Positions 25,524 to 64,000 of a DNA stretch of 64,000 bases are shown here, piece after piece. The notes under the pieces were generated by a model that saw only the letters and a program-made list of their open reading frames with translations, was not told the DNA's origin and did no database searches. Source of the stretch: Eutreptiella sp. 'Long Island Sound 2002' (Eukaryota > Protista > Euglenida); contig OZ038378.1 of NCBI GenBank assembly GCA_964036045.1, forward strand, positions 39,122,001 to 39,186,000. The letters are read 5' to 3'. Every line of letters begins with the position of its first letter. Positions within the stretch are counted from its first letter, which is position 1. A program made the translations under genes and the position numbers.

Positions 25524-26126
25524 TTCACGGGTGTGTGTATCTGTACCCCTACATTGCATAGGGTTGGGGTGAGTCATCGTCACCCTCATAATCTCACTTA
25601 TCCCACGTATCAGTTGACCCGTATTTGGCATATGTGGTTCATTCGGTGCATGGAAATGATCGATTATGCGCGGGTATTTTTTGCATAGCGTCTGCACATG
25701 ACGCACATGACGTGTCGGAAAATAGTCTGCTCCAAAACTGACAAGTACAAGTGCTGCATTGGCAGGAATGTCACGCGGTGGTACCATTGCTGAGGCGTTC
25801 AGGTTGATGGTCCGTCCCCGCCAACCTAAATTCCACAGTTCGTGTAGCGTCACCTGCCCACCATGACTGCCACAAATCAAAATATCAATATTATCCAATG
25901 CCTTATTATTAATTAACTCATGTGCGAGTGTGCAGAGGTTGGGATGGGTTCGATCCCATGTATTGATGTCGCCCCTCCACCTGTCGGGATATTCATCGTA
26001 TCCGTTATATGTATCTGTGGTATCGCCGATCAGTCCAATAGTATGACCTTCCCGTTCCACATATGTATACATATTCCTGTTCAGATTGTACCCAGCACCA
26101 GGTTGCAGCACTGCTATACATACCAT
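25524..26126 (-). pseudogene. Alpha/beta-hydrolase-like protein, 3' end cut off by the junction with the host tandem array
   Basis: It has a nucleophile elbow ICGSHGG, then VSFGADY (Asp) and EPHMP (His). The frame runs into tandem-repeat sequence below 25524. Confidence 0.55.
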
Positions 26127-26314
26127 TTTTTGTTTTGTATTTCTTATTTTTTGTCCGCATTGGTTTGTAGTCGTGCGTACAACCCTGTCTCTAATTCGTC
26201 TGTAAGAAAGTACACATTCAACGAACGACGGTGTTGGAGATATTGCGCTGCAATGTCTGGAAGTGTGGCAGTGGGCACGTGCTTACGTGGCCATCTCGTT
26301 CACGGATTAGAGGA

Positions 26315-26465
26315 CGGGGGGGGAGGGGCATGATGTCCCCCAATGGGATGATGGGAGTGGCATGATGTCCCCCAATGGGATGATGGGAGGGGCATGATGT
26401 CCCCCAATGGGATGATGGGAGGGGCATGATGTCCCCCAATGGGAACGAGACAAAGCAACCACACG
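26315..26465. repeat. G-rich minisatellite block 1 (GGGGCATGATGTCCCCCAATGGGATGAT)
   Basis: Same unit as 27436-27725 and 29478-31745. Confidence 0.95.
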
Positions 26466-26680
26466 TTTTCGTCTGCTGGGGATCGATTTAGATACCATGG
26501 GGCGTGGAAGGAGAGGGTCGCGTACCCAGCCTACATCGGCGAAGGGAATGAACAGATTCGTCTGGGCGTGGGAGCATGGCTTTCATGTGGTGCAGGCGAC
26601 ACATGCGCCATGTCTCTGTGGTACATGAAGTAGCGTGTGTGTTTTTTTTCTGCGCAGGAGAAAAAAAATACAAGGGGGGA

Positions 26681-27427
26681 TCAACCCCTAGACAATATGA
26701 GTTCTGGTACGTATTTTGCAACCCGGGTTACAGGAACGTACATTTGTTCAAACGGGGAGATCGAGAGAATCGCAAGGCTTGCCGCCACAGATTTGTGCTC
26801 TGATCTGTACTGCTCAATGAGAAGCTCCACATCATCCCTTGACCTATTGAGTAATGCCAATCTGTCTTGATAATCCTTGAGTTGGCTCCTAAATTCATCT
26901 CCCCTGGTCATTGTCAGCTTTAAAGCGTTAGAAAGGGAGGCCATTTCGGCGCGTAGTTCTGCGTGGCCCGGTCCGATCCCCTCCATCGTTTTAAGAGCAG
27001 CCTCTGCATTCCTCAAATTGCTCAACAGTTGGGAATCCTTTTTGATATATGCCACTTGCACCCTTGACATCTCCACACTGAGCAATTTGGTAGCGAATCG
27101 AGCCAACATGTGAATATTGTACATGGAGTACGGCATCAGGTCCCAATGGCTTCCCCGGTGCATGCGACGATAGAAAGCCTTGAGGAGCACACTGTCTTGT
27201 GCCAAGGTGTTCAAAAGGTGCCACAAACAAAATGCAGTTGAGGGACTGCTTTTCAGGTCAAGGCAGCAGGGCGATGACAGACGAGATAGAACAGCATTTG
27301 TGGTACGAACGGAAACGCCTGACATATCCGCAGCTCTCGTCATGAGCATGGCTATGTCCACACCACCGTCAGTGCTGATTGGTGGTTCCACCTGTAGCCA
27401 GTCTGGGGGACATTGTGTGAGGGACAT
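26681..27427 (-). CDS. Viral hypothetical protein with a C-terminal coiled-coil-like region (248 aa)
   Basis: Long ORF in the viral region with heptad-like LSNLRNAEAAL..ELRAEMASLSNAL. Confidence 0.6.
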   Translation of the reverse strand: MSLTQCPPDWLQVEPPISTDGGVDIAMLMTRAADMSGVSVRTTNAVLSRLSSPCCLDLKSSPSTAFCLWHLLNTLAQDSVLLKAFYRRMHRGSHWDLMPYSMYNIHMLARFATKLLSVEMSRVQVAYIKKDSQLLSNLRNAEAALKTMEGIGPGHAELRAEMASLSNALKLTMTRGDEFRSQLKDYQDRLALLNRSRDDVELLIEQYRSEHKSVAASLAILSISPFEQMYVPVTRVAKYVPELILSRG

Positions 27428-27435
27428 TGCCTATA

Positions 27436-27725
27436 TGGGATGATGGGGGGGGGGGGGGGGGGGGGCATGATGTCCCCCAATGGGAACGGGACAAAGCAAC
27501 CACACGTGGGGGGGAGGGGCATGATGTCCCTCATTGGAATGATGGGAGGGGCATGATGTCCCCCAATGGGATGATGGGAGGGGCATGATGTCCCCCAATG
27601 GGATGATGGGAGGGGCATGATGTCCCCCAATGGGCATGGGACAAAGCAACCACACGTGGGGGGGAGGGGCATGATGTCCCCCAATGGGAATGGGACAAAG
27701 CAACCACACGTGGGGGGGAGGGGGG
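27436..27725. repeat. G-rich minisatellite block 2
   Basis: GGGGCATGATGTCCCCCAATGGG and GGGACAAAGCAACCACACGTGGGG units. Confidence 0.95.
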
Positions 27726-27860
27726 GAGATGTACCTGCAGAACGCCGTTGTGGAGGGATGGTGGATGTTACCAGCTTAATATATGCATATCCTTGTACGC
27801 GGATGACTTTGATGGATTTGATGCAATGTATTGAATTGAATTGAAGGGCAACGAAAGGAA

Positions 27861-28097
27861 CTACCTAACGAACAGAGCAATAAGCACAACGGCTAGGCAA
27901 CAGGCAACAAATAGAGGCATGTATGCGTTTCTCCCCTGCCCTGACCTGCGTGTTGTCTGCTTCTGCTGCTCCTCATTGTTCCTTCGTGATCCCGTGACCT
28001 GTGGTATCACGAGTGGGGCAAAGGATACGGCGGTAAATGCAACGGGAAGTACAGCAGGGTGCACCATGATTTCTTTCTTAGTGGACCGAGTTTTCAA
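27861..28097 (-). CDS. Small putative membrane protein
   Basis: 78-aa ORF with a hydrophobic C-terminus LFVACCLAVVLIALFVR. Confidence 0.4.
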   Translation of the reverse strand: MKTRSTKKEIMVHPAVLPVAFTAVSFAPLVIPQVTGSRRNNEEQQKQTTRRSGQGRNAYMPLFVACCLAVVLIALFVR

Positions 28098-28155
28098 AGT
28101 TTTTAGAGTAACAAGAGGGCCCGTTGTGTTTGATTATTCATCGGGATCCCGATAG

Positions 28156-28416
28156 TCAATCCTGCTGGTCAAGGGAATCAACACCTTCAAGTGCACTTTC
28201 TGTTCTCCTGATCAATTGTTTCAGAAAATGCTTCGCACGTGCCCGTGCACGTTCCGCCTGCTTCAGAACATTTGTCATGAGCCCTGTGTCCACGTCCGGC
28301 AGTGGTTTTGATGTGCCATTTTGGTACTGCAGGATAATCCCTGTCAATCCATAAAAACAAACGTCCTTGGTGGTAGATATCACACTCTCTTTGTAAATAA
28401 GAAAGAAAAGGATCAA
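28156..28416 (-). CDS. Small hypothetical protein
   Basis: 86-aa ORF, divergent from and abutting the 28416-29054 ORF. Confidence 0.35.
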   Translation of the reverse strand: MILFFLIYKESVISTTKDVCFYGLTGIILQYQNGTSKPLPDVDTGLMTNVLKQAERARARAKHFLKQLIRRTESALEGVDSLDQQD

Positions 28417-29054
28417 TGGATTGTGAACTGTCCGTCCACATCACCAACAAGCTGTCACCTGAAGCGTTAAATATGCTATTCGAGATGTATGTCACAACCT
28501 ATGGAGGCGCTGGTCAAAAGGTTTGGTTCAAGAATGCAGATGATTTGAAACGATATGCTTGTGGTGTATGGATGGTTTGTGACCAAACTATCCCAAAGGC
28601 GTACATTTTGTTTCAACCACGGCTGTTAACGAATAAAATTTCACTGGGATGCCATGATGGAACACCAGAGGGAAAACAATTTGCAGTGGAGCTGCGAATC
28701 AAACTTTTATTAACTCCCGGGTACATGGTGGAAGCATCAGACGCAAGTTCGTGGATACTGCGGAAGAACAACGTACCTATTATCCGCGATCCCGCATTGA
28801 TTAAAGAACTGGTAATCGCTGACCCAACGAAAGAGGAAATTGAAATGAACGAACTTTTCGATCCGAAAGACAAATGGTCACAGTGCTATTTCCACATTTT
28901 TTACGGAGTTCATGATGGGGAGACCGGTGCTGTTCCAGTGGAGCAATACAGAAATGCAGAAACCTTGTTTGGTATTGATCCGAAATGTGTTGAGTGGTCC
29001 GACGGGGCTGATTGTGGAAGGACTTGTAAACGTACCAATGGACTCAATCCATAA
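28416..29054 (+). CDS. Viral hypothetical protein (212 aa), possibly GNAT-like fold
   Basis: Intact ORF. The motif HDGTPEGK..KLLLTPGYMVEASDASSWILRK resembles uncharacterised large-DNA-virus proteins from memory; the fold is not verified. Confidence 0.6.
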   Translation: MDCELSVHITNKLSPEALNMLFEMYVTTYGGAGQKVWFKNADDLKRYACGVWMVCDQTIPKAYILFQPRLLTNKISLGCHDGTPEGKQFAVELRIKLLLTPGYMVEASDASSWILRKNNVPIIRDPALIKELVIADPTKEEIEMNELFDPKDKWSQCYFHIFYGVHDGETGAVPVEQYRNAETLFGIDPKCVEWSDGADCGRTCKRTNGLNP

Positions 29055-29477
29055 AGGAGTGGTCTGTGAATTTCATTTTTTTATGTTTTGTCATCTTCCT
29101 TTTGTAAATAGCGACAAGGGCGGGATATGTTTTCCATATAAACCAGGACCGGTGTCATAGCGAGCAATAGCGGACGGCGACCACCGCTGCCCCACCATTT
29201 CGGTACATGGCGTCATGCCATGTCTTGTGCACTTTGTGTTCGTGTGGCTCATATGTGAGTCAAACATAATAACGGTCTTGGTTGATCTTTGCAGAGAGAA
29301 ATGAATGCCAACCTAACCTGACCTGCAAGATAACGGGAAAGCATCGGAGCACGAGGACAGCCACAACAGCAATGCGGGGATACGCAGAGGGAACAGATTG
29401 GATGCCGTCCAGCATGGTAACCTCGCAGAGACCACAGGGATGGAGGGGAAGCCGAATGTCTAGATAGACGTCAAAAA

Positions 29478-31745
29478 TGTGGGGGGCATGATGTCCCCCA
29501 ATGGGATGATGGGGGGGGGGGGGGGGGGGGGGGCATGATGGTCCCCAATGGGAATGGGACAAAGCAACCACGCGTGGGAGGGAGGGACATGATGTCCCCC
29601 AATGGGATGATTGGGGGGGGGGCATGATGTCCCCCAATCGGAATGGGACAAAGCAACCACACGTGGGGGGGAGGGGCATGATGTGCCCCAATGGGATGAT
29701 GGGGGGGGCATGATGTCCCCCAATGGGATGATGGGGGGGGGCATGATGTCCCCCAATGGGAATGGGACAAAGCAACCACACGTGGGGGGGAGGGGCATGA
29801 TGTCCCCCAATGGGAATGCGACAAAGCACCCACGCGTGGGGGGGAGGGGCATGATGTCCCCCAATGAGATGATGGGGGGGGCATGATGTCCTTCAATGGG
29901 AATGGGACAAAGCAACCACGCGTGGGAGGGAGGGGCATGATGTCCCCCCATGGGATGATGGGGGGGGGGCATATTGTCCCCCAATGGGATGATGGGGGGG
30001 GGCATGATGTCCCCCAATGGGATGATGGGGGGGGGCATATTGTCCCCCAATGGGATGATGGGGGGGGGCATATTGTCCCCCAATGGGATGATGGGGGGGG
30101 GCATGATGTCCCCCAATGGGAATGGGACAAAGCAACCACGCGTGGGGGGGAGGGGCATGATGTACCCCAATGGGATGATGGGGGGGGGGCATATTGTCCC
30201 CCAATGGGATGATGGGGGGGGGCATGATGTCCCCCAATGGGAATGGGACAAAGCAACCACACGTGGGGGAGAGGGGCATGATGTCCCCCAATGGGAATGG
30301 GACAAAGCAACCACCCGTGGGGGGGAGGGGCATGATGTCCCCCAATGGGATGATGGGGGGGGCATGATGTCCCCCAATGGGAATGGGACAAAGCAACCAC
30401 GCGTGGGAGGGAGGGGCATGATGTCCCCCCATGGGATGATGGGAGGGGGCATATTGTCCCCCAATGGGATGATGGGGGGGGGCATATTGTCCCCGAATGG
30501 GATGATGGGGGGGGGCATGATGTCCCCCAATGGAAATGGGACAAAGCAACCACGCGTGGGCGGGAGGGGCATGATGTCCCCCAATGGGATGATGGGGGGG
30601 GGCATATTGTCCCCCAATGGGAATGGAACAAAGCAACCACGCGTGGGAGGGAGGGGCATGATGTCCCCCAATGGGATGATGGGGGGGGGGCATATTGTCC
30701 CCCAATGGGATGATGGGAGGGGCATGATGTCCCCCAATGGGAATGGGACAAAGCAACCACACGTGGGAGGGAGGGGCATGATGTCCCCCAATGGGATGAT
30801 GGGGGGGGCATGATGTCCCCCAATGGGAATGGGACAAAGCAACCACACGTGGGGGGGAGGGGCATGATCTCCCCCAATGGGAATGGGACAAAGCAACCAC
30901 ACGTGGGGGGGAGGGGCATGATGTCCCCCAATGGGATGATGGGGCGGGCATGATGTCCCCCAATGGGATGATGGGGGGGGCATGATGTCCCCCAATGGGA
31001 ATGGGACAAAGCAACCACACGTGGGGGGGAGGGGCATGATGTCCCCGAATGGGAATGGGACAAAGCAACCACGCGTGGGGGGGAGGGGCATGATGTCCCC
31101 CAGTGGGAATGGGACAAAGCAACCACGCGTGGGGGGGAGGGGCATGATGTCCCCCAATGGGATGATGAGGGGGGGGCATGATGTCCCCCAATGGGAATGG
31201 GACAAAGCAACCACGCGTGGGGGGGAGGGGCATGATGTCCCCCAAAGGGATGATGGGGGGGGCATGATGTCCCCCAATGGGAATGGGACAAAGCAACCAC
31301 GCGTGGGGGGGAGGGGCATGATGTCCCCCAATGGGATGATGGGGGGGGGCATGATGTCCAATGGGATGATGGGGGGGGCATGATGTCCCCGAATCGGATG
31401 ATGGGGGGCGGCATGATGTCCCCCAATGGGAATGGGACAAAGCAACCACGCGTGGGGGGGGGGAGGGGCATGATGTCCCCCAATGGGATGATGGGGGGGG
31501 GCATGATGTCCCCCAATGGGAATGGGACAAAGCAACCACATGTGGGGGGGGGGGGGGAGGGGCATGATGTCCCCCAATGGGAATGGGACAAAGCAACCAC
31601 GCGTCGGGGGGAGGGGCATAATGTCCCCCAATGGGAACGGGACAAAGCAACCATACGTGGGGGGGAGGGGCATGATGTGATGAGGCCCCCAATGGGAATG
31701 GGACCAGGCAACCACATGTCGGGGGGGGAGAGGGGCATGATGTCC
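29478..31745. repeat. G-rich minisatellite block 3 (~2.27 kb)
   Basis: Dozens of GGGGCATGATGTCCCCCAATGGGA(T/A) units interleaved with GGGACAAAGCAACCAC(A/G)CGTGGG. The long ORFs here are repeat translations. Confidence 0.98.
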
Positions 31746-31764
31746 CCGCTGGCAGTTGCTCATG

Positions 31765-32751
31765 TCACAAAACCAAAATTTTGCAACGAATGTTGGCATA
31801 GTGGAAGTCGATGAACCGTGACATATTCAGTCGCAGAAATTTTGAGCACACGACCTCGATTGGCAACAGCACACCAATCATTACCAGCTTATACATGGCA
31901 ACCGTGCGGCTCTGTTGCAGTTGCTTAACATTCTGTGTAACTATGGTTTGCAGGCGGTTGACGTCAGTTTCATTCTCCACGTCCTGTGGTATACGTGCTT
32001 GTTTGAAACGGTGACGTAGCACGTGCAGTTGGCGCAACAAATCTTCTCTATCAGCCACTGTGCTGTGTGCACGATGCCTTTTTTTCCGTTTCTTTGACTC
32101 GTGGTGTGTGTCGTGGTGCGAATGGATATCCACCGTGGGAGGTATGTGTGTATCTGATCCTACTGATTGTATGTGATCTGACTCTACTGATTTTATGTGA
32201 TCTGACTCTACTGACTGTATGTGATCTGATCCTACTGATTGTATGTGATCTGATCCTACTGATTGTATATGATCTGATCCTACAGATTGTATGTGCTCAG
32301 CACTCCTGTTCAGTCTGCGCAGCCTTCTTCTTCGTTCTCGACCTGACGCGGACTTGGTCTTACTACTACATTGAATCGCGTCTGTCTGATCCAGTTGCTG
32401 AACGTTGCGACCTTCAGAGTCACATTCTGTCTGTGCATCACCTTCCTCCACCCCACCCTCAACCTCACCCTTTGCCTCAACTTCTTCCTCTTGTGCCTCA
32501 TCTTCTGCCTCAATGTCAGCAAAGGGATCGTCATCATCCTCAGCAATTGTGGCCTGGCCCTTTGCCTCCTCCATCTTGCGTGCCATATCTGATCTATCCG
32601 TGTGCAGAAACTCGTCACGTAAATATTCCTTACACTCGAACCACTGCAAAAACCATTCTGCTGGTACAGGCTGCCATCTGACACTGGCAGTTACTCTGCC
32701 TGCTGGTTTCTCCAACAATTCAAATGTGATTGTGTTCACCTTACGAGGCAT
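31765..32751 (-). CDS. Conserved NCLDV protein resembling the iridovirus 287R / FV3 12L family; C-terminus probably disrupted; contains an 8-aa (24-bp) repeat
   Basis: REDLLRQLHVLRHRFKQARIP...VKQLQQSRTVAMYKLVMIGVLLPIEVVCSKFLRLNMSRF parallels the family pattern (LL.K..L.K.Y...IP...L.LD..V..YK.YL.GGF...E......DM.GF), as recalled. It carries HIQSV(G/E)SD repeats. Confidence 0.6.
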   Translation of the reverse strand: MPRKVNTITFELLEKPAGRVTASVRWQPVPAEWFLQWFECKEYLRDEFLHTDRSDMARKMEEAKGQATIAEDDDDPFADIEAEDEAQEEEVEAKGEVEGGVEEGDAQTECDSEGRNVQQLDQTDAIQCSSKTKSASGRERRRRLRRLNRSAEHIQSVGSDHIQSVGSDHIQSVGSDHIQSVESDHIKSVESDHIQSVGSDTHIPPTVDIHSHHDTHHESKKRKKRHRAHSTVADREDLLRQLHVLRHRFKQARIPQDVENETDVNRLQTIVTQNVKQLQQSRTVAMYKLVMIGVLLPIEVVCSKFLRLNMSRFIDFHYANIRCKILVL

Positions 32752-33718
32752 GTTGTTCTTTGTATATAAATGCGTCAGTTTGTGTCTTAAATGAGGACAG
32801 AAAGGAAAGCAGTTGTGATTGTCTCTCGATCATTTGGGTTGGCCAGCGTCCAACCTGAACAACTGAACCACTCTGAAATATTCGGAAACTGTCACATGCA
32901 GATCGCGTTCCAATCCTCAGATCCCAAATTGTCGATGCATCCGTAGGTTTGACGAAGTACCAATCGAATTGTGACCGTAAGGGAACAAATGCAAACACAA
33001 ATTGCGCTTTCCAATCCATATTTGCCCCAAATGCAACAACATTCAAAGTGGATTGTCTTTGTCGTACAACTGCAGTCCAGTTACAACCCTCATCACTCAC
33101 ATCGTCATTGATGGCCTTTGCAATGTCAACCATACGCGGCACATGTACAGGTATTTCATGGACATTCTGAACAAAAGACACATTGCTCATCACCACATCC
33201 AATACAAAACCGACTGATTTTGAATTGATTGATGTATGATTCTGAGCGCCTGGACACAACGTGAGACCATTGTTCATGTATCTATGTAGCAAATAAGGTA
33301 TTATTGTGCAAAGCATTGTGGCCTGACAGCAACCGGTAACATGAATTGTATTGCGACTGGATATCTTGAAGTGTGGTATCTTTCCGTTGTATGCAACGTC
33401 CATATTGAGCATACTGCGGAACCATCGTTGTTTTTTGAGACGCTTTAACAGAAAGCCCCTTGTTTGGTTGTGATACTGCATCATCACCACCGTGGGTACT
33501 TGTGGGTCTGCAACATCGATATCTGTCACACATATACTATCACTGAGGCGTTGTAAGTCCACATTTATGTTTACGAGATATACCACCCACGTACGTGTGT
33601 AAATTGTGTTCTGTCCGGTGGCCATGTTGACCATGGAACCCAGCAGCGGATGAACTTCAATGTCGCCATTGTACACCTGTACATCTGGCGACACCATAAT
33701 ACACAAACACCTGGACAT
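32741..33718 (-). CDS. TATA-binding-protein-like factor of NCLDV type (copy 1, complete)
   Basis: Two TBP-like beta motifs, FRSMLNMD..HFKISSRNTIHVTGC and FRIFQSGSVVQVG, with DVVMSNVSF between them. Confidence 0.7.
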   Translation of the reverse strand: MSRCLCIMVSPDVQVYNGDIEVHPLLGSMVNMATGQNTIYTRTWVVYLVNINVDLQRLSDSICVTDIDVADPQVPTVVMMQYHNQTRGFLLKRLKKQRWFRSMLNMDVAYNGKIPHFKISSRNTIHVTGCCQATMLCTIIPYLLHRYMNNGLTLCPGAQNHTSINSKSVGFVLDVVMSNVSFVQNVHEIPVHVPRMVDIAKAINDDVSDEGCNWTAVVRQRQSTLNVVAFGANMDWKAQFVFAFVPLRSQFDWYFVKPTDASTIWDLRIGTRSACDSFRIFQSGSVVQVGRWPTQMIERQSQLLSFLSSFKTQTDAFIYKEQHAS

Positions 33719-33726
33719 ACAAACAA

Positions 33727-34317
33727 TCAGGCGGCAGGAGGAATCAGGATGTCATCATCAAAATAGTTGCTTGCAACACCCCCCTTAGCATCCCATTTAC
33801 CATACCCACTGACCGTACCCAATGCGCCTGCATGCAAGTCCAGTGTGTAATTGGAGCGCATTGGTCTCATAATGTTCCAATTATTCTGATGCAGTGGTCT
33901 GACGTCCCCACGCAAATGGTCCGAGAACTGTGTTCGCCATGAACGTGTGCGCTGTGAGCAAAAGGGTCGCCTGGATATGCGATCTAAAAGTTTGCGCCGC
34001 TGTGCATCGCTGTAAACACCGGTTACCAAGCTATGTTGTGGTAACTTGCGCTTAGCCTTGCTGAATCTTTCGTCAGGGGTTTCAACATCACGCAGTCCGT
34101 CATGATCACCAAATGTCACATCACGACTAACATTCAAAAACTTCAAAATGGAACCATCAGATGGTATTGGTATTGTATCATTGGGTGCAACGTGGGGGGA
34201 ATAAGTTTGTTGAACATTGTCAGTTGTTGATTTTTTGCATTGCGCAAACCAAAAGAGGAGGAGGAGGATAAGCACAACAATCAAGATCGCAGCAAAGATC
34301 CACCCAGTACGACTCAT
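33727..34317 (-). CDS. Viral single-pass membrane protein (copy 1)
   Basis: N-terminal TM segment WIFAAILIVVLILLLLFWFA; 196 aa. Confidence 0.7.
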   Translation of the reverse strand: MSRTGWIFAAILIVVLILLLLFWFAQCKKSTTDNVQQTYSPHVAPNDTIPIPSDGSILKFLNVSRDVTFGDHDGLRDVETPDERFSKAKRKLPQHSLVTGVYSDAQRRKLLDRISRRPFCSQRTRSWRTQFSDHLRGDVRPLHQNNWNIMRPMRSNYTLDLHAGALGTVSGYGKWDAKGGVASNYFDDDILIPPAA

Positions 34318-34342
34318 CGTTGTTTATTTTTTACATTACACA

Positions 34343-34748
34343 CTATACATCCTGCAATAAATCCGACTTCAATATGACATTATAAGTAGATGGTTGAACA
34401 AGAAAGAGTGAATCATTGTCCGCAATTTGTGCCTTGCTGTTCTTAGCATGTTTGCAAAGCGTGACATTTGCACAACCCAAAGAATATGCATGCTGCAGCC
34501 CCCGCTTCATGTACCCCCCCTCAGTGGCAGTATGAAGCGCCAACATATGATACCCATGAAAACTACGGGTGGCAATGGGAGGTATGTCCCGGCTGACCAG
34601 TACAGGGAGTCCAATTAGTTTGTGTCTTGCAGTTGCCAATGACATGTGCACTTTTTTACCTTCTTCAGTGTCACTCAAAATAATTCCCACTTCTTTTTCG
34701 TTGTCATACCTGATTCCGTCGTAAGACATGATTCTGTCATGCAAACAA
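34343..34748 (-). pseudogene. Viral hypothetical protein (copy 1), start lost at the insertion junction
   Basis: Matches 42376-42789 except for the first codons, which are replaced by the GC-rich element. Confidence 0.6.
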
Positions 34749-37700
34749 GACAGGGCCCCGACCACCCCCCTGGGCTGGTACCGCCTACAAGAGGACTGGA
34801 CCAAGCTCACCGTCAAAGCCCTCCGGGACCTGACCACCCCAGGCAGCGGCCTCCACGAGACCATCGTTGACCTCCTGCTCTGGGGAGCCCGCAAACACAC
34901 CCGGGGCCAGCACATCTGGATCCCCCCCATCGAGTGGGGCCAGGCCCTGACGCACGACACCGGCATCAACGTCACGCGTCAAGGGACCGTACGCCTACGA
35001 CGGGCCCCAGAGGAGACGGACCACCCAGCGGACCCGAACCGCCCGGAGCAGTGGGAACAGGCCACCGCGCCCAACCGCGACACCGCCCTCCGCGCCGCCG
35101 GCCTCCGCACCCCAGACGACGACCTCCCCCCCCCACCTACAGACAGTGACCACCCCCCGCCGGAGCTCTGGGTTACAGTCCTCGAGCGCGGCCACTACTA
35201 CGTGATAGCCGCTACGGCTACGTCCCCCGGCCCGCAATGGCTCATCCAGGGGACAGACACCATGTTCGCCCCGGAGACCGCCCCACCAGGGGCAGTGGGG
35301 GACCCCACCACCCAGCACAGGGTCCTCAGGGGTGTCCTCCAGCCAGGGGACAAGCCCCCAGCCCGCGCCCTGGCCCAAATCACCTCAGGGAAGGCGGGCT
35401 ACCACCTGGGATTGGCCATGCTCTGCCTAACCCACTGGATCCAGCGCCGCTGGCCACCCACGGGGACCGTGCCCTGGGTTTGGGCCATCCCCACCGCCCA
35501 CACACAAGTCGAGGCAGGCCCGGACACACGACCAAACCCCCCCCCAGACCGCAGCAGTCCCTCACCTGCGGGTACCACGCCATCCACAGGGTCCTCAACC
35601 GCGCGGGTCTTAGCCCAAAGCTAGCATACCCCCTTTCCACCACTGACCAAGAGGTCCACCAGATACGAAAGCTCGTCTGCGAAATCCTTGCCGCGGCAGC
35701 AGAAGACGGCAAGCTTCTCCTCCAAACCGCCCGGCCTACAACTGCCCACGCAAGCGCGCGGCAAGCGGACACATACACCGACACAGCACACCCCGCCGCA
35801 CAATCCCCGCCCATGCCCCCCCCCTCTCGCTGCTCAACCGGAGACCCACACACGCCCACCATCGCGCGCACCCCCGGGCCCCGCGACACGGGCCTCCCCC
35901 ACCCGCCCGAACACCAGCACACGCCCGCCACACACCCATCCGCCGGACACCCTTCACCGCCCTCCACACTCGACAACCCACACACACCCGCCGAGGGGAG
36001 CCCCGCGCCCCGCGGCACGCCCACCCCACCCAGTGGCCCGCCCACGCCCCCCACACACACCCCAGAGGACCCAGGCCCACCCCCCCCGGCCCCTGAACGC
36101 AGCCCAAGCGACTTGTTCCCCCCCGCGGACGCCAACCCTCACGACCTCGCACATTGCAGGACCCGGGCCCAGCCGAGCCCAGAGCGAGAAGGCCACAGCC
36201 CCGCGCCTCCCTCCCCCGCCGCTGCAGACCAGATCGGCCCGCCGGGCCGCCAGGTCACGACCGCCCCCCCCCAGCCGCCCGCCCCCAACCTACAGCCCGA
36301 GGACATGCCCTCCATCCTCCCCGCCGTGGCCGCAGCAGAAGCCGCCGCCCACGAGCCCGCCCGCATCACAGCCCAACCCGCGTCCACCACCTCCTCCTCA
36401 TCCTCAGCCTCGTCCACCTACTCCATCTCATCCTCCGACCCCCCCCTCCCCGCCGCCCTCATCCTCAAGGCCACGGCGAAAGACAAAGCCGCAGCCGCAC
36501 GCACCGACCCCCCAACCCCCACACAGGCGACTCAGGCACCCCGGCAACGCACCGGGACGACCCCCGACCCGACAGCGGCGCCCTCACACCTCCAAACAGA
36601 GGTACTCCTCAACCTGGAACCGGACCCCAACCCCAAACCCGACCCCAAACCCAAGCCGGCGCCCACGCGAGCACACACAACACCACAGACGCAACAACAC
36701 AAACCCACCCGACACCACCCCCGCCCGGACCCTCGCCCAAACCAGGACCCCCCACCCACCGCAACCCGCGCCCCCCTCCCGCCGGCACCCACCACCACCG
36801 CAGAGACAGCCACCCAGCACGACCCCGTCCAAGCCCTCGTCCGCATCCCCGTCACCAAGCGCCCCGTCATCCATCCCCCACAAACCAACACAACCGCCGG
36901 CCAAACCGACCCAGGGGCGTGGGACCCCTCGACCACCGTCACCGTCAAGCCCGGCCCCCAACCCGCCCCCCCTGCCCACCACATAGTGCAGCCCCGGGGA
37001 CTGCCCACGATGGCCAACCCCCCACCCCCACAAGGGGGACCGGAAAACCCACAAGGGGTCCATGGGCCATACCCGCAACACCAACCCCACCACTACCCAC
37101 ACCACCACCACCAGCGGCCCCACCACCACCACTACCAACACCACCCCCACCACTACCCCTGCCCAGCGCCCTACCCCACCGGGCCACAACCCCCCATGTA
37201 CGAACAGCACCAGCGGACGGGATGGCAGCCACCGAACGCTCCACCCGCATACCCCACCTACCGCCAGCGGCCACCCCCCCCGTACCAGCCACCACCCCTG
37301 TACCAGGAACCGTATCCATACCCCCCCAGCCACCACGTGCACGCCGAACAGGCCCCCCGGGCCCAACCCCGCCAAGGACAGCCACTCGACCCATACCACC
37401 AGCCGCTACCGCCACCACACCCCTACGTGGCGGATCCATGGACGACGGGGGACCTCCCCCCCCCCCAGTACCAGGCGGCACCGCGCGAGGCCCCCCAGGG
37501 GCCGCCGACGCCTCCTGACTGGCCCGACTCGAGCGATCAGGCCCGGTCCCGCAAACGGCGGCGCTCCCGCCCCCCCCCCGCACGGCACACTGGCCCACGG
37601 CGCCCACACTCCCACCGCGCCTCAACCACCCACTCGCGCCGCTTATGCTCCCCCAGGTGCCACCACGACCCCCCGGGACCCCGCTCCCGTCGCTCCCGCT

Positions 37701-41752: not shown

Positions 41753-41760
41753 ACAAACAA

Positions 41761-42351: not shown

Positions 42352-42375
42352 CGTTGTGTATTTTTACATTACACA

Positions 42376-54088: not shown

Positions 54089-54367
54089 GTGAATTTCTTT
54101 GAGCGTCACCAACTGACCGGCTTTGTTGACCGTGGGGCTACATCACCAGAAGACCCCCCACAATGCTACCTGACAGGGAATGACATAAAACTCACAGAGC
54201 CAACGGTCGTGCAGTGGCCAGATTCATGTATGATGACACTCCAATCACAACTTAATAAGCGATTGGATGATGATGATGATGTAATGTATAATACAGATTC
54301 TGATTGTAATGAACACAACGAATTTTGCGACTCTGACGAAGAACCCGAATCCGAAGGGGAAAGCTGA
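54089..54367 (+). CDS. Small acidic hypothetical protein
   Basis: 92-aa ORF with an Asp/Glu-rich C-terminus, overlapping the A32 start. Confidence 0.4.
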   Translation: MNFFERHQLTGFVDRGATSPEDPPQCYLTGNDIKLTEPTVVQWPDSCMMTLQSQLNKRLDDDDDVMYNTDSDCNEHNEFCDSDEEPESEGES

Positions 54368-55238
54368 AAAGGATGCACAACAACAAAAAAGGGGTGAGGG
54401 AGACGTATCACAAAGGAAAAGGCCACCAATTGGCCAATGGGCAGGGGGTGCAATTGTAAGCTTTCGTATACCATGGTTTGACCCCGCGGTGCATCTGGAC
54501 GGCAGTGAAAGATTGGGTATCATAGGACTACCAGGCACCGGCAAGTCCTGCTGTGTGAAATCGTTGCTACATGCACTGCATGGTCAATTTGGCAAGGTGA
54601 TGGCCATGAGTGGCAGTGAGAGTGACAACAGATATTATGAATCATTCATTCCCAAACTCTTTGTACACAATCGATTGAGCGTTTTGGCTCTGAAACAATT
54701 TGTGAATGGACAGCGTTTACTGAGGGCAACAGATCCCAATGGTGCCCATCAACATTCCCTGATCATAATGGATGACGTTCTGGATAATGCGAGACAATTA
54801 GACCAGCCAGTGGTGCACATGCTGTACAAACAGGGTCGTCACATCAGTAGCAGTGTCTGGTTAGTACAGCAGTACCCAATGGATGTACGGCCATTCATCA
54901 GGTCAACCAGATCTGCGGTCATCCTGTACGGCAATGTAAATCAGCAGGCACGAAGAAAAATGTATGATAACTATGGTTCGTTATTCCCATCGTTTGCGGA
55001 GTTTGAGGCTGCATTCGAGCACGTGACCACAAGCCAGCCACACACTGCCCTTGTGATACTACTGAAAGGGTCCCGTCCAATTCAATCCGCGGTCTTTTGG
55101 TATAGAGCAGATTTGTCACACATACCCCCGGGCTTTATCGTTGGACATCCACGAATGCAGGAACATTCTGCTGCACGGCTAGATGCAGGCAAGGCACAGG
55201 ATATGGGCTTGTTGAGTATGGTGGGTAGTGACCACTAA
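54309..55238 (+). CDS. A32: A32-like virion DNA-packaging ATPase
   Basis: GIIGLPGTGKS (Walker A), AMSGSESDNRYYESFIP, IIMDD (Walker B) and QGRH..LVQQYPMDVRPFIRS. Confidence 0.93.
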   Translation: MNTTNFATLTKNPNPKGKAEKDAQQQKRGEGDVSQRKRPPIGQWAGGAIVSFRIPWFDPAVHLDGSERLGIIGLPGTGKSCCVKSLLHALHGQFGKVMAMSGSESDNRYYESFIPKLFVHNRLSVLALKQFVNGQRLLRATDPNGAHQHSLIIMDDVLDNARQLDQPVVHMLYKQGRHISSSVWLVQQYPMDVRPFIRSTRSAVILYGNVNQQARRKMYDNYGSLFPSFAEFEAAFEHVTTSQPHTALVILLKGSRPIQSAVFWYRADLSHIPPGFIVGHPRMQEHSAARLDAGKAQDMGLLSMVGSDH

Positions 55239-57209: not shown

Positions 57210-57463
57210 TGTTCAATCCTCAAGCATTGGTATTGCACCGTTGTCAATGTCCAGTATCTGCAATTGTCTCCCTGGTAGGAGTATTGGGCCCGGCAGCCGG
57301 AGTTGTAATGACACCATTTGACAACGTGCCCTTGCCATTATAATAGGGTAGTGGTCGTATTGTGCACTCACATACCGATACTGCAGTAGTCACCAATGAT
57401 TGTGATTCACGTGACTCAGGACTCGATTTCTGACAAACTCACTAATGAGCATGATGATTTCAT

Positions 57464-57853
57464 TTGGCACATCTGTGTACGGCGACATGCTGTGCTGTGG
57501 TAACAAAAAATAATTGTTGCCTATCGGATAACCTTTTCCACAACCCTGATACACCAATTTCTGACGAACAGGTGCTGCAATACAAAATCAGTGTACGTGT
57601 TCTGAGTCGCATTTTGAAAATTGCCAGTATGGGACGACAATTGACAATCACACTAATGCTTGGACTCCCAATGCGTATATCAACCACCATGGCCAGCGAC
57701 AGTAACGTGAACATTTATCTCCACTTTCCTGCAGACATATATACAGACCGTGAGAACCGTGATAAAACTATGACAAGATGTGTAGGAGATATTCCCGCAA
57801 TAACAATGCCTCACCCTGAGTCAGCGTCATCTGTGCAACGGACCTGTCAATAA
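57464..57853 (+). CDS. Hypothetical protein
   Basis: 129-aa ORF. Confidence 0.3.
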   Translation: MAHLCTATCCAVVTKNNCCLSDNLFHNPDTPISDEQVLQYKISVRVLSRILKIASMGRQLTITLMLGLPMRISTTMASDSNVNIYLHFPADIYTDRENRDKTMTRCVGDIPAITMPHPESASSVQRTCQ

Positions 57854-58105: not shown

Positions 58106-58570
58106 TTACTCCAATGACAATTTCACCTTCAAGCCCTGAATGCGGTCATGCCTGTGACTGTAGAGGCACGTCCCCTGTGCTTTAAAGGGACAGTCTGGAC
58201 CGCGATTAGATTGCTGTGTCTTGAGAAGTTCCCGATGCTTTTCGCAGCAAGTGGGATGATGGTATCTGCATGCATCAGCAAAACTACATGACCCCTGAAT
58301 GTAATGTATGCAGACTTTGTTGTAATGCGTATCACTGTCGCCAATGTGGGCCTTGGCGATACAGCCATTGTCGGGGGCAACGTTAAGGGGGATATAAGAA
58401 TGTGGACGTGTGATAACTTTCTTCTTTGGCATAAGAAGGGCAATGACGGAGTCAGGGATGGAGGCCGTCTTACACAATATACGGCCAAAGTTGAAACATT
58501 TAAAAGTACGCACACAACAACAGTACAACAGAGTGTTCCGCAAATTTCTTGTACAATATGGGGTTGACAT
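58106..58570 (-). CDS. CCCH zinc-finger protein (start probably downstream of the listed position)
   Basis: CIHYIQGSCSFADACRYHH plus a second CPFKAQGTCLYSH. Confidence 0.65.
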   Translation of the reverse strand: MSTPYCTRNLRNTLLYCCCVRTFKCFNFGRILCKTASIPDSVIALLMPKKKVITRPHSYIPLNVAPDNGCIAKAHIGDSDTHYNKVCIHYIQGSCSFADACRYHHPTCCEKHRELLKTQQSNRGPDCPFKAQGTCLYSHRHDRIQGLKVKLSLE

Positions 58571-59822
58571 ACTGAATAAACCGCATCTACTTCAATGTAC
58601 ACTGCAAACAATGCAGAAAAATGGTCAGAAATTGCATTCCCGTGTATTTCGTTGTGTACTGAATTTGTTGTATTTCGGGACGGTGAAATTCTCACTTGTG
58701 AGCATGAAGCAGCATGCAGATGCAAGTTCCTGCATCAGCACCTATGTACCCCTGTATGCACAACGGCATATGCATGCACAACAGCATACAAAAATATGGT
58801 ATGCAGTCATCATTGGCAATAATGCTGCAACAACCAACAGGAACGATGTGCGTTACCATATCAGTATTGTATACAAGGTACTTTTCGAAAGGCAATTTGG
58901 TGAAACGTGCCGTCTGCCAGCTGATTTTACGATGCAAATGCTTGCAGACAGCATTGCACACCATGTGACACACAGACAATACAAACCCGGGTGCTCTCCC
59001 GTCTCATACCAAGTACAGGTTGTGAAACACATAAGAAAATTGTGGAAATGTCTACATCTTGCACTTGACACACCATCATTGATGCAGTATTTGCATGTTC
59101 AACAAAGTGTCTGCTCCGAACATAAAAGGGCACTGGACAATGAAACACTATATGGAAAAGTGTTGCGCCCGCGCATGTTGAATCGTAGACGCAACTATTT
59201 TGTGGAGGATGAAATTGTGCGAATTCACCAGTCATACAGTACCCTGCCACATCAGCACGCAGCAGCACATGCACTACGTGATGCGGTAATTTTGCAGACT
59301 CTAATTGAAACCGGACTTCGGCGTCGAGCTGTAGCCTGGTTGAGATTGCATGAGATTTTTAAAACCAACACCTGCAGCGTGCAGAATGCTGTTTGTACAC
59401 CTGACAAAAATGGGAACATTAGGATGATATTGTTGGGACCCCGTGCAGGAGAGTTGCTGTTACCATACTGCTTAAATCTGTGTGCAACAGGTCGACACAA
59501 TGGCTGGCTATTTCCGAGCAGCAAACAAGCAGGGCTGCACATTGGAGGACCGATGATTAACAGGATAGTACAACAGCGATGCCAACAACTGCAGATAGTG
59601 GGTGTACATGTACACGCCCATGCCATCAGACACTACGTCATCAGAAAATTGGTGAGCATTGACAACAATCTTGAGCAGGTCTCCAAATGGATAGGTCACA
59701 AAACCATTAACATCACGTATGAATATTATTGGAGTCGTAAAACCTCTTTGGACATGTTAGCCGGAATGAACGTACCATGGTTGCAGGATACTGACATCGA
59801 TGTCACTCAGAAATCTGCATAA
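58410..59822 (+). CDS. Tyrosine recombinase/integrase 2, intact (470 aa)
   Basis: RNYFVEDEI..RDAVILQTLIETGLRR, DKNG, WLFPS, HAIRH, WIGH and TYEYY. Confidence 0.92.
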   Translation: MITFFFGIRRAMTESGMEAVLHNIRPKLKHLKVRTQQQYNRVFRKFLVQYGVDILNKPHLLQCTLQTMQKNGQKLHSRVFRCVLNLLYFGTVKFSLVSMKQHADASSCISTYVPLYAQRHMHAQQHTKIWYAVIIGNNAATTNRNDVRYHISIVYKVLFERQFGETCRLPADFTMQMLADSIAHHVTHRQYKPGCSPVSYQVQVVKHIRKLWKCLHLALDTPSLMQYLHVQQSVCSEHKRALDNETLYGKVLRPRMLNRRRNYFVEDEIVRIHQSYSTLPHQHAAAHALRDAVILQTLIETGLRRRAVAWLRLHEIFKTNTCSVQNAVCTPDKNGNIRMILLGPRAGELLLPYCLNLCATGRHNGWLFPSSKQAGLHIGGPMINRIVQQRCQQLQIVGVHVHAHAIRHYVIRKLVSIDNNLEQVSKWIGHKTINITYEYYWSRKTSLDMLAGMNVPWLQDTDIDVTQKSA

Positions 59823-60054
59823 TCTCCTGACAATGTGATAGGGTTTGCACCTCGTCAACGCCTGTATCAGTGGGTATCATCTCTGTTTGTATCAGTTGTA
59901 CTGCAGTCATCAACCTGGTTTTGCAACATGTTCTGTGCACCTTTAGAATGACAAATACATCGTTTTGCGATATGCCCTGTGCACGGAGTGCAGCATACAT
60001 CTCATGTAAATGACCTATCACCTTACAGCATGTGTAACATCGAATTGGCATCAT
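59803..60054 (-). CDS. RPB10: RNA polymerase subunit RPB10 (N)
   Basis: MPIRCYTCCKVIG..HRTCCKTRLMT. Confidence 0.9.
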   Translation of the reverse strand: MMPIRCYTCCKVIGHLHEMYAALRAQGISQNDVFVILKVHRTCCKTRLMTAVQLIQTEMIPTDTGVDEVQTLSHCQEIMQISE

Positions 60055-60831: not shown

Positions 60832-61659
60832 ATGCGCAATTCAACATGGACAACATCGGGCGGATTTCAACCTCAATTGTCCAAAATAATACTTCGTTAC
60901 AACCCGGTTTTTGTTTGTGAACTTCCTGCTACACAAACACTGAAAAATCTGACACAACTGCTGAACAAAACATCTGTTAATTCAGATACGGTCCTGTGGC
61001 GATTTAGCGAGAGCAAAATAACAATACACAACACCAGCACCGTCACAGATAACCCAATTCAGGTGCAGTGTGATATGGGAATGTCACTATGCAGTGCCAC
61101 CTTTGCATGTTATCAGCCCGATATAGCTGTTGCACTTCACACCCCAGAGCTGCTCCTTGTCACCAAAAACTTGCGCAGGAATATACCAGTGTTCCTTTTT
61201 CTGACACGTGACCTCAGTAAATTCGGTATCGTCGTTGTTACCCCTGGGCATCTCCGCACAACATTGCTGGAAACTATTTCACACACACCCCCCCTTGACG
61301 TTAATATTGACCACTGCAATGCATACATGATTTTTGATCCCAACACACAGAACATCACAGATGTTGGTGCAGTTGTCATAAATAGTGCTGATCTTGTACA
61401 ACTAGTCAAGGAATACGCAACGTGCTGCAAGGAGGTCACCGTTGAGGGCAACACCACATTTGTTCAGTTCAGTGCAGACAATAACAGAAGTTTGCATAGG
61501 ACGGATAAAAGGCAACATTTTTTGTTCATTTCAATTTGTTCATTCAGTGCAGATGACAACAGGACTATTTCAGCTGTGTGCGCAGATCGCGCCAAAATTC
61601 GCACAGACACGGTAACAGTTTCTGTTGCCAGTACTGTGGTGCATTTGGCAGGTACGTGA
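60832..61659 (+). CDS. PCNA: Divergent PCNA (sliding clamp)-like protein; C-terminus possibly degenerate
   Basis: The pattern LKNLTQLL..VLWRFSESKITI..FACYQPDIAVALHTPELLLVTKNL..VFLFL and VINSADLVQLVKEY..EVTVE..VQFSAD fits PCNA secondary-structure motifs. Confidence 0.65.
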   Translation: MRNSTWTTSGGFQPQLSKIILRYNPVFVCELPATQTLKNLTQLLNKTSVNSDTVLWRFSESKITIHNTSTVTDNPIQVQCDMGMSLCSATFACYQPDIAVALHTPELLLVTKNLRRNIPVFLFLTRDLSKFGIVVVTPGHLRTTLLETISHTPPLDVNIDHCNAYMIFDPNTQNITDVGAVVINSADLVQLVKEYATCCKEVTVEGNTTFVQFSADNNRSLHRTDKRQHFLFISICSFSADDNRTISAVCADRAKIRTDTVTVSVASTVVHLAGT

Positions 61660-62521
61660 TCTGCAGGGCATGCCGATGCATTATAACAAAAAATGCACCA
61701 ACAAGACCTATCAAATTGCAATTCCCGTAGACTTGATCAACGTAGTAAGGTGGTATGGGCACTGACTTGTTAGCATTGCAGGGCAACTGACATGACTCAT
61801 AGAACGCATCTGATGCTGAGTTTGTATTGCGCAGCTTCCAGGGTGTTTTGATTTCCAATAGATGGCGTCGTACGATAATAAGTTCAATGCCGGGACCAAC
61901 CTCTTCACAACGCTCTACAAGATAAAGTATCCCATCCGGTGACCCCCGAAGAAAATGCAATGGCTCGCAGGGTATCCAAATACCCTTTTCGTGTAGGACA
62001 AAGTTATGACTGTCATAATGCTGTGCAATAAAGTCCTTGAACAATCTGAAGGCGGTTGCCTCATTCTTTGAGCCATATGTCAGTGGTGCTCCTTCAAGGC
62101 GACATGGATGAAGTATAGCATGCATTCTTGCTAGCGGTGTTTCATAGGGATTGTTGTTGTGTATAGCCCCAAACGTACTTGCAGTCAATCGCATATCTCG
62201 CAATCTAAGCCACGTCTCAGTTCCCTGTTGTGCATTCCACGCATGTAATTGGTCAGTCACACACAACACCTTTGGTGGACGTTTCACAGGTGCACCAAAC
62301 TTCAGGTGCCCATAAGTTCCGTCCCTTAAATCAGACACCCACCGAAAAAAATTACATGCATCTTCCTTCCACCTTGCACAACAATAATATTCACGACCAG
62401 GATTCGCTCTGGAACGACTGGTTCGTCTTGCTGCTGGCCTGTTGTGCAGGCACACTGTGTGCTCAGGGTCGTCATTCTGCACAGGGGCAGGTAGTAGCAG
62501 CGCAGATTTGTGTGGTAACAC
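61565..62521 (-). CDS. GRF zinc finger fused to a YqaJ (lambda-exonuclease-like) viral recombinase
   Basis: CLHNR..NPGREYYCC..CNFFRW, followed by QGTETWLRLR..RLTAS, YGSKNE, GSPDG, LEIKTP and QVYGN. Confidence 0.9.
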   Translation of the reverse strand: MLPHKSALLLPAPVQNDDPEHTVCLHNRPAARRTSRSRANPGREYYCCARWKEDACNFFRWVSDLRDGTYGHLKFGAPVKRPPKVLCVTDQLHAWNAQQGTETWLRLRDMRLTASTFGAIHNNNPYETPLARMHAILHPCRLEGAPLTYGSKNEATAFRLFKDFIAQHYDSHNFVLHEKGIWIPCEPLHFLRGSPDGILYLVERCEEVGPGIELIIVRRHLLEIKTPWKLRNTNSASDAFYESCQLPCNANKSVPIPPYYVDQVYGNCNLIGLVGAFFVIMHRHALQITYLPNAPQYWQQKLLPCLCEFWRDLRTQLK

Positions 62522-62694
62522 GGTTGTGGTCTAGTTTTGCAATGGGTTGCAATTGCTCATCTGCGTGCTGCGTATGGCACGGACAGCATAGAAGCTGTGT
62601 ACATCTGACCATTGCACAAATTCTCCTTCTCCGAGTGCCTGCAGAATTGCAAGATCCACACCTGAATATTCACCAGGATTACGGTGTTCAATCA

Positions 62695-63348
62695 TTATGC
62701 ATATCCGAATCCAAACACACACACTACAGCAAAACACGAGATACATGGTGAGATTGTCCCGTTTCTAAATTTCATCATATGACATTGCTCAAGCATCTGG
62801 TGTCTGGCTAACGTCACACGTGAATCAAAGGTATTGTGCTTATGAAGACCATAGATGATGTACAACCAAAGCACGGTTACTCGGACAGACAAAACTGCAA
62901 GATTCATCCACCCAATAACAATCCACACAGGCAATGCTGTGCTGACAACTATTCGCAAAATGGAGGGTGTTTGGCCTGCACAGATTTCCCATGTCCATAA
63001 TGTGGTCAGAAGGACCTGTGAGATACAACATTGGATTGCACATCGAAACGTAAAGGCACTGTTGGAACCCGTTCTTTGATTGAGACTGCATGTGCTCATC
63101 AACAGACCAGTGAATACAACGTAGTGCATTTCTCTGTAACCATCTACGTGCTGTGTTGTGCCACAAAGTCCCCCGTATACATTCACAGCTCCCCACAGGC
63201 GTGCCACGTGCTGTATTTGAAGTTGGATCAAGTGCAGGGCAGTAAAGCTGATCATGCACACAGGATACAGCAACATGAACCAGTAATACGGTGTATTGGA
63301 CGCCAGTGTGGTGGTGACATTTTGCCCTATTGTGTCACAAGTGCTCAA
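62695..63348 (-). CDS. Putative multi-pass membrane protein
   Basis: 217 aa with several hydrophobic segments. Confidence 0.35.
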   Translation of the reverse strand: MSTCDTIGQNVTTTLASNTPYYWFMLLYPVCMISFTALHLIQLQIQHVARLWGAVNVYGGLCGTTQHVDGYREMHYVVFTGLLMSTCSLNQRTGSNSAFTFRCAIQCCISQVLLTTLWTWEICAGQTPSILRIVVSTALPVWIVIGWMNLAVLSVRVTVLWLYIIYGLHKHNTFDSRVTLARHQMLEQCHMMKFRNGTISPCISCFAVVCVFGFGYA

Positions 63349-63484
63349 TGTATGATTTGCACCCTTCAGAACCTAAGCAATCTACCTCCCCATACCCTCA
63401 TCCGAATATGAATACGTCTGGTTTTTGCGTGGCATGCTGGCGTAGCCGTAGCTGTTGTATATAAGGAAAAGGAAAATATCTTAA

Positions 63485-63886
63485 ATGCAGCATGATGACG
63501 AAAGGGACAAACGTCCCTCCCCCCCCCAACGACACAGCATTGTTTTGGATGTTGCTGCTATAATCGCCCTCACTGTCATCCTCTATTTTATAATGACAAG
63601 ACTGCGTCAACATGCAGTGCGTTGGTCATTCAGTGGCACACACGTACCAGACCCACCAAAACCCCTACCGCCGCTGTCATCCATCCTCCATCCCCCACCA
63701 GAGCCACAGCCTGTGCACTCCCTGGCAAACATACTGCCACGGCTACCGGAACCGGAACCTATACCTTCACAAGCACCGAGTCAGCCGGCAGACACAAGTT
63801 TGGTGTCATTACAACGGTTCCTGAAAGAACAGCATGTTGCATCACAACACATTCGACCTTTTACGACACATCATCATGAAGAATAA
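63485..63886 (+). CDS. Single-pass membrane protein with a Pro-rich stalk
   Basis: IVLDVAAIIALTVILYFIM, followed by PDPPKPLPP/PEPEP. Confidence 0.55.
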   Translation: MQHDDERDKRPSPPQRHSIVLDVAAIIALTVILYFIMTRLRQHAVRWSFSGTHVPDPPKPLPPLSSILHPPPEPQPVHSLANILPRLPEPEPIPSQAPSQPADTSLVSLQRFLKEQHVASQHIRPFTTHHHEE

Positions 63887-64000
63887 TGTTTTGTGGATGC
63901 GTGCTTGTAACTGTGCCGGACAAGTAACGTCAAATATTGCCAGTAGTTCACGTTTGCCTCCGTCAGATGGGTCCGATTCCACTTCAGCTGTGATGACATA

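Follow-up and report, generated by a model that had tools for sequence, protein, structure and literature searches.

The window analysed here is a 64,000-nt stretch of the Eutreptiella sp. 'Long Island Sound 2002' assembly (GCA_964036045.1, contig OZ038378.1, positions 39,122,001 to 39,186,000 of the forward strand), in which giant-virus genes amounting to about 25 kb lie, in a damaged state and with host mobile DNA inserted among them, inside a repeat-rich eukaryotic contig. Viral marker genes run from ~31.8 kb to the end of the window at 64000; left of 31765, no open reading frame (ORF) had a viral match in the Pfam, profile and protein comparisons made with the stretch. The interval 40905-64000 is gene-dense and intron-free, with ATG-initiated ORFs of at least 150 amino acids covering 68% of it, compared with 7% of the host interval 4400-14000 and 0.2% in 10 shuffles. 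The GC content of the viral element is 46%. The original prediction, made from the letters of the window, claimed at least 38 kb of nucleocytoplasmic large DNA virus genes starting at 25524; viral genes are indeed present from ~31.8 kb onward, but 6.2 kb of the claimed interval is a GC-rich element of the host, 1.9 kb is a duplication, ~2.8 kb is satellite, and ORFans are included as well.

Working from left to right, the first gene with a viral match (31765..32751, minus strand) encodes a DUF5767-like protein, which we take to be of the 287R/12L type that had been predicted here; it is shortened and ends beside a satellite, and 31768-32751 matches a DUF5767 profile built from seven Pimascovirales-side proteins (E = 1.6e-14 among the 35 window genes). 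A whole TBP-like factor (copy 1, 32741..33718, minus) follows, called from an Atlas value of 0.95 with clusters 89-100% viral and from a weak match to a protein, encoded in a PM_01 genome, that Pfam assigns to TBP; DUF5850 is a Pfam match. A RING-finger protein (44784..45482, minus; Pfam) adjoins RPB1 (45487..48713, minus), which is the N-terminal (A'-like) part of a split subunit and carries the motif LRGDYDGDE. Pfam Rpb1 domains 1-4 lie at 45774-48713 (E = 2.5e-29), and the start of domain 5 is in the next frame (E = 4e-14). Then come TFIIS (49464..49976, minus; Pfam match 49467-49976), the tyrosine recombinase YR1 (50401..51504, plus), an ERCC4 nuclease (51504..52109, plus; Pfam), a UvrD-like helicase (51999..53543, minus; Pfam), and an intact A32 packaging ATPase (54309..55238, plus; Pfam Pox_A32 at 54309-55235, E = 8e-7). 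The predicted A32 model (predicted local distance difference test, pLDDT, 48) was too poor to weigh, and its top BFVD match, an iridovirus-like ATPase, was not used. The right part of the window contains the C-terminal half only of PCNA (57458..57853, plus), a second and intact tyrosine recombinase, YR2 (58443..59822, plus, 459 amino acids), RPB10 (59803..60051, minus; Pfam 59806-60051, E = 6e-15), and a GRF zinc finger plus YqaJ nuclease gene (61565..62764, minus; Pfam). Pfam recognised two Phage_integrase genes (E = 4e-17 and 3e-13).

The predicted A32, RPB1, RPB10, TFIIS, TBP-like, and YqaJ markers were borne out by Pfam and Atlas far beyond chance, and decay lesions are present too. PCNA was more mixed: a profile of 27 viral proteins clearly matches 57458-57850 (E = 2e-8), but at 60832-61656, the site of the other PCNA call, the match is weak (E = 1e-3 among 35). 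The latter had no Pfam match, its PDB search was empty, and its single-sequence fold (pLDDT 30) was unusable; the gene (60832..61659, plus) is listed as a possible second, very divergent sliding clamp. An in-frame 42-bp repeat occupies 60311-60582 in a membrane-protein-like viral ORF. An A32-like packaging ATPase, together with its own RNA polymerase and transcription factors (RPB1, RPB10, TFIIS, TBP-like), marks the element as belonging to Nucleocytoviricota. MCP, PolB, and RPB2 were not found in the stretch by Pfam and profile searches; VLTF3 and SFII are also not in it, and only two of the seven markers of the concatenated tree in PMC8575486 fall inside the stretch. An Rfam search of the stretch gave 0 matches.

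Decay, host insertions and copies of the element

In-frame stops interrupt YR1 (50770-50772, between its N-terminal part and catalytic domain), the UvrD-like gene (53184-53186), and the GRF-YqaJ gene (62531-62533); further lesions are the RPB1 frame break near 45860-45880, the half PCNA, and the shortened DUF5767 gene. Stop-codon reassignment was rejected as the cause of the in-frame stops because all three stop codons end genes (12, 9, and 8 of 29). Ten sequencing runs from four studies contain the stretch, under two organism labels and in two estuary metagenomes, with no RNA run listed among them; at the RPB1 frame-break site the contigs of runs X1, X5, and X8 differ by an indel.

A high-copy host element of 70% GC (34749..40904, plus) starts within an ORF, terminates in a (CCTA)n tail, and separates the two copies of a 1,878-bp direct duplication: the left copy (32871..34748) holds the TBP-like, DUF5850, and ORFan genes, and in the right copy (40905..42781) TBP-like copy 2 is cut by the element. 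Dozens of different flanks were seen at the element's end (40904-40907), and its summed depth, which is not a copy number, lies ~1000-fold above the flat viral bins in 4/4 runs. None of its nine ORFs matched a Pfam family and no reverse transcriptase domain was found in it; it is likely a 5'-truncated retroelement lacking long terminal repeats, which would have entered by target-primed insertion after this viral copy separated from the others. Between the duplicates there are 15 substitutions and one indel. Because both share 6 of 11 tested variant sites against outside contigs, the duplication arose within this viral copy. A target duplication of 1,878 bp is unusually long for target-primed insertion, and unequal recombination between two inserted copies of the element is a rival explanation of 32871-42781.

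The left viral border had been predicted at 25524. That position is not a viral end; there a host repeat insertion stops, which interrupts a gene whose two halves are in frame. Starting at the ATG at 26126, 603 bases down to 25524 (25524..26126, minus, the 201-codon N-terminal half) read on in frame into the C-terminal half (20207-19632; 19632..20207, minus) across 5.3 kb of inserted DNA (20208..25523), which consists of a 700-bp head and four 1146-bp repeats and has a direct duplication of 7 bp on its two sides (20201-20207 and 25517-25523). The insertion has very high summed depth in 4/4 runs, and its empty site is present in a contig of run X9. No protein family matched 25524-26126 and no Pfam family matched 19632-20207, which is multi-copy and of uncertain origin. 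Tetranucleotide composition of 25524-26126 correlates with the viral core at r 0.66 and with the host at r 0.32, whereas that of 19632-20207 is unlike the viral core (r 0.25); virus-like composition is evident from ~25558 within the N-terminal half, the virus-like range as a whole being given as 25524-26300. Contigs of X1, X5, and X8 depart from the stretch at 25557, switching to a different sequence, and in one X1 contig a segment of at least 25524-25570 is connected to sequence from 25647 on. Because contigs diverge at 25557 and composition is virus-like at 25524-26300 but not at 19632-20207, the viral left end is either at ~25557, fused to the multi-copy gene, or left of 19632.

The 7-mer that flanks the 1146-bp array also ends each repeat unit; the array (20201-25523) is possibly an element that prefers certain sites and has a recombination core. 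GC-rich satellite arrays (26321-26444, 27430-27723, and 29480-31747; block 26321..31747) vary between copies, and ORFans lie between them (26681-27427 and 28416-29054); at 27667-29125, some contigs of run X1 leave out 28136-29094 or turn back on themselves, and the ORFan block thus also varies between copies. Farther left, host repeats are nested at 1-6720 (a 15/308-bp satellite in inverted orientation, an 85-bp array, and paired TACTAGG repeats), and a Helitron-like Rep/PIF1 helicase gene occupies 14370-18034 in two frames, its PIF1 matching only mixed eukaryotic clusters.

The A32 and YR2 genes of the stretch are identical to entries P0015 and P0191, respectively, both on a 1,657,498-bp contig. 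Overall, A32 is represented by seven entries on five contigs of 0.25-1.66 Mb, with broken copies on two contigs, and YR2 copies are on contigs of three of those sizes (1,657,498, 250,370, and 696,488 bp). These viral copies, whether loci, haplotypes, or strains, differ by only 1-1.6%. A further RPB1 of the same clade, 34% identical, accounts for five entries (P0033 and P0186-P0189) on four ENA contigs of 1.31, 0.84 (split), 0.61, and 0.31 Mb, and this set is likely a second endogenisation. The estuary runs also hold host repeats, in similar proportion, which weakly fits integrated DNA in wild cells. Both estuary runs, X8 and X9, share long loose ends at 45664 and 48911, which points to a further copy, or to a related virus whose neighbouring sequence differs.

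Contiguity of viral genes with host DNA, invasion by host elements, and decay are the hallmarks of a giant endogenous viral element (GEVE), and all three are observed here. The copies on long contigs, together with the invasion and the decay, uphold the endogenisation originally proposed, and the element is almost certainly endogenous. Some results count against this: no listed Logan short-read contig spans a whole virus-host junction, the right border is not in the stretch, and substitutions relative to outside contigs (14 synonymous and 21 non-synonymous; of 430 rows, 38 were tested and 35 of these were coding; the neutral value is 0.73, p 0.06) are neither clearly neutral nor clearly purifying. 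The missing junction contig, like the presence of the stretch in two estuary metagenomes, would also be expected of a free co-cultured giant virus mis-joined to host contigs during assembly. That is very improbable, however, given two insertions of host DNA into viral genes, each with its target duplicated, the stops, frame breaks, and satellites, diverged copies on five long contigs, and the accompanying host repeats in the estuary runs.

Phylogenetic position by A32 and RPB1

The A32 protein has six environmental relatives at 43-58% identity, after which values fall to ~30%; RPB1 has a handful of relatives at 34-39% over most of its length. RPB1s of this clade carry RGD[YF]DGDE where others have NADFDGDE, the three catalytic aspartates being kept. 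No lineage member was found in IMG/VR, which contains the first set of GVMAGs (metagenome-assembled genomes from giant viruses): its best A32 matches are 28-39% and its best RPB1 matches 21-25% identical, and the lineage motif had 0 matches. All nine labelled A32 neighbours (9/9, the top IMG/VR matches) are PM_01, though the scan patterns favoured PM_01, and Imitervirales and Algavirales A32 references were therefore fetched separately. The A32 trees exclude L170 and rows that nearly duplicate others (53 of 110 rows in the quick tree, 35 of 110 in the approximately unbiased, AU, test). The RPB1 trees, of 204, 53, and 42 rows, covered eukaryotes and archaea as well as asfarvirus, poxvirus, and Imitervirales proteins; assignment of rows to pox, archaea, or Pol II is presumptive, based on motifs, length, or heptad repeats. 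Labels for L339, L419, L329, and L337 are from PMC8575486 S1.

In the A32 quick tree, the clade was fully supported and sat on a very long stem (3.3) on the Pimascovirales side. The A32 AU test, with references limited to IM_01-like and prasinovirus-like sequences, rejected grouping of the lineage with Imitervirales (p 0.044) and with Algavirales (p 0.010). In the RPB1 trees, support for the lineage was 100; for lineage plus Pimascovirales rows it was 82 (LG+G4) and 90 (C20), and inclusion of three unlabelled rows gave 99 and 94, respectively. The best trees in the RPB1 AU test were the Pimascovirales ones, and nesting in PM_01 (p 0.007) and grouping with all six Imitervirales (0.044), with Pol II (0.041), and with two unlabelled groups were rejected. 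Placement in Imitervirales or Algavirales, which the original prediction had singled out for checking by marker trees, is thus rejected by A32 for both orders, but RPB1 leaves five Imitervirales at p 0.10.

RPB1 ends 66 amino acids past the bridge-helix motif, as do three of four relatives (64-69 amino acids) and 34 of 38 Pimascovirales-clade proteins; only 4 of 69 RPB1s in IMG/VR end there. The short length, initially read as a decay truncation, is thus a lineage trait, and the frame break alone is a lesion. The split after the bridge helix is a trait observed here rather than a formal criterion of Pimascovirales. Three unlabelled split RPB1s (P0100, P0107, and P0074, with LN[AL]D[FY]DGDE) represent another deep clade beside Pimascovirales.

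The A32 and RPB1 sequences favour a long-branch clade beside or at the base of Pimascovirales, in keeping with the deep-branching position first suggested. The virus is probably affiliated with Pimascovirales, and there is a good chance that the clade is undescribed at the family level or higher, labelled PM_11-14, Proculviricetes, egovirus, and Mininucleoviridae sequences being outside the comparison. Several points detract from this placement. The A32 stem of 3.3 carries a long-branch warning, and the A32 references are without asfarvirus, poxvirus, marseillevirus, and pithovirus. Of the RPB1 rows called 'Pimascovirales', most have no label and owe their grouping to L339 (PM_01) and L077; the RPB1 AU test, run with fast searches and 5000 replicates, left unrejected not only the five Imitervirales but also Asfuvirales (p 0.07) and Asfuvirales plus pox (0.10); and the RPB1 split site, being also found in archaea and three unlabelled proteins, is not unique.

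Some of these points would suit a virus from an already described group (PM_01, PM_14, a different GVMAG v2 family, Proculviricetes, or Asfuvirales like those of the Euglena GEVEs) that evolves fast and is drawn by long-branch attraction to the Pimascovirales base: A32 alone does not separate nested-in-PM_01 from sister positions (AU p 0.41-0.63), so that order within the Pimascovirales side is left unseparated, RPB1 does not reject Asfuvirales, and PM_11-14 and Proculviricetes sequences lie outside the trees. Such an origin is nevertheless unlikely, as RPB1 rejects nesting in the PM_01 core, IMG/VR holds no member, asfarvirus RPB1s are unsplit and have another motif, and the position is stable under C20.

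Recombinases and the mode of integration

YR1 and YR2 are only 22% identical, and the best family matches of both are XerA/C/D-like. In alignment, YR2 keeps the R, K, HxxR, H, and Y residues. Its coverage is flat with that of the core genes, and one 5,348-bp contig of run X1 spans the A32 end, the PCNA piece, YR2, and RPB10; the idea that the recombinases are high-copy host transposons was rejected because of the flat coverage. YR2 is the founding member of a small family that has the motif TGLRRRAVAWL and three environmental clusters, and it had 0 matches among phages. Searches for the genomic context of free relatives gave one chance match and otherwise nothing in metagenome scans, and 0 in both the GTDB scan and IMG/VR. 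The claim that the virus has its own integrases therefore stands with respect to physical linkage to A32 and RPB10 and to coverage, but a role in integration is only inferred because YR1 carries a stop and no att site was found.

We consider it reasonably probable, overall, that the element is a decaying multi-copy GEVE of a temperate giant virus, from an undescribed clade of family rank or higher beside or at the base of Pimascovirales, likely integrated via its own tyrosine recombinase. By analogy with phaeoviruses, integration of a circular genome through YR2 has somewhat less than an even chance of being correct. The virus would recombine its circular genome into host DNA once or several times; several insertions, or later segmental copying, would yield the near-identical copies; and silencing and drift would follow, this copy decaying. 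The second set of clade RPB1s, on 0.3-1.3-Mb contigs, suggests recurring integration within the lineage. Weighing against the reading as a whole are the absence of MCP and PolB from the stretch, the in-frame stop of YR1 and the lack of any listed copy of it, and the YR2 relatives (P0192, P0218, and P0219), which are without genomic context and two of which lack the first His of H-x-x-R. To these is added the failure to find an att site, att-like structure, or terminal repeat in the stretch, where the left end is overwritten by host elements and the right end is outside.

Nearly as likely, though still tentative, is accidental integration of the same virus, of the same lineage, by host repair or transposon capture, its copies arising by segmental duplication and the recombinases resolving genome dimers or being passengers. 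The missing att site and terminal repeat are in line with this, as are the XerA/C/D-type family matches, the divergence of only 1-1.6% between copies, and the joining of the left end to a multi-copy, non-viral-looking gene at ~25557, a join also present in an X1 contig. In addition, a survey (10.1101/2025.04.19.649669) found mobility genes to be rarer in Nucleocytoviricota insertions. Accident accounts less readily for an intact YR2 linked to core genes in several copies, or for a second relative that is also multi-copy on Mb contigs, which suggests a habit of the lineage. Integration through YR2 could be taken further, to an order-level, unsampled temperate lineage that is sister to all Pimascovirales, has a rewired polymerase active-site loop and its own recombinase family, and routinely integrates into aquatic eukaryotes, endogenous copies in at least two assemblies being its only long genomes; we regard this extended version as doubtful.

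Relation to known endogenous giant viruses

The best-known GEVEs were initially said to be phycodna- or Imitervirales-like, which is incomplete: Asfuvirales occur in Euglena and Rhizophagus and medusavirus-like elements in Amoebidium (PMC12455990), and endogenous iridovirids are published (10.1101/2025.04.19.649669). GVMAG v2 lists 22 high-confidence GEVE genomes (PMC13524828), single Marseilleviridae-like genes are reported in Symbiodiniaceae (10.1101/2022.04.12.488082), and Proculviricetes are described in PMC10132985.

The phaeovirus elements of Ectocarpus (PMC13236599) are similar in being Nucleocytoviricota genomes in a eukaryotic chromosome, in several copies, with a tyrosine recombinase whose catalytic residues are intact. 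They belong to another order, however, and their recombinase lies near an end, with CC-core attL/attR and excision shown, whereas the present element has no att site found, two recombinases of ~370-460 amino acids, and a decayed copy. The GEVEs of Euglena gracilis (PMC12455990) are likewise multiple, related, eroded, transposon-invaded, and duplicated in a repeat-rich genome, but they are Asfuvirales with 25-37% GC against 51% in the host; here GC is 46%, RPB1 is split, and the position is on the Pimascovirales side. PM_01, known only as metagenome-assembled genomes without a host (PMC8575486), gives the best labelled A32 matches and the best DUF5767, TBP-like, and RPB10 matches, and shares the RPB1 end; it differs in that A32 identity is only 28-39% and RPB1 identity ~25-30%, in having NADFDGDE rather than RGD[YF]DGDE, and in that RPB1 rejects nesting. 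Endogenous iridovirids of ray-finned fish (10.1101/2025.04.19.649669) are also Pimascovirales DNA integrated in a host chromosome, but they fall inside Iridoviridae, have vertebrate hosts, and are read as occasional events; the present clade lies outside sampled iridovirids in the RPB1 trees and carries recombinases.

Searches of the literature, whose subscription part was thinly covered, turned up no endogenous element that has several genes, bears a recombinase, and comes from a deep clade on the Pimascovirales side. GEVEs as such are a known kind; what is new here is probably the clade, undescribed and placed beside Pimascovirales, together with the intact recombinase linked to it. Most aquatic Pimascovirales are without a known host or latent cycle, and the element ties a deep neighbouring branch, absent from the databases, to a cultured eukaryote. 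Several long copies allow the gene content of the clade to be read. If recombinase integration is true, this would be a further independent case of recombinase-based latency in giant viruses, and a deep sister group is informative about how Pimascovirales are rooted and about the point at which the split of RPB1 occurred.

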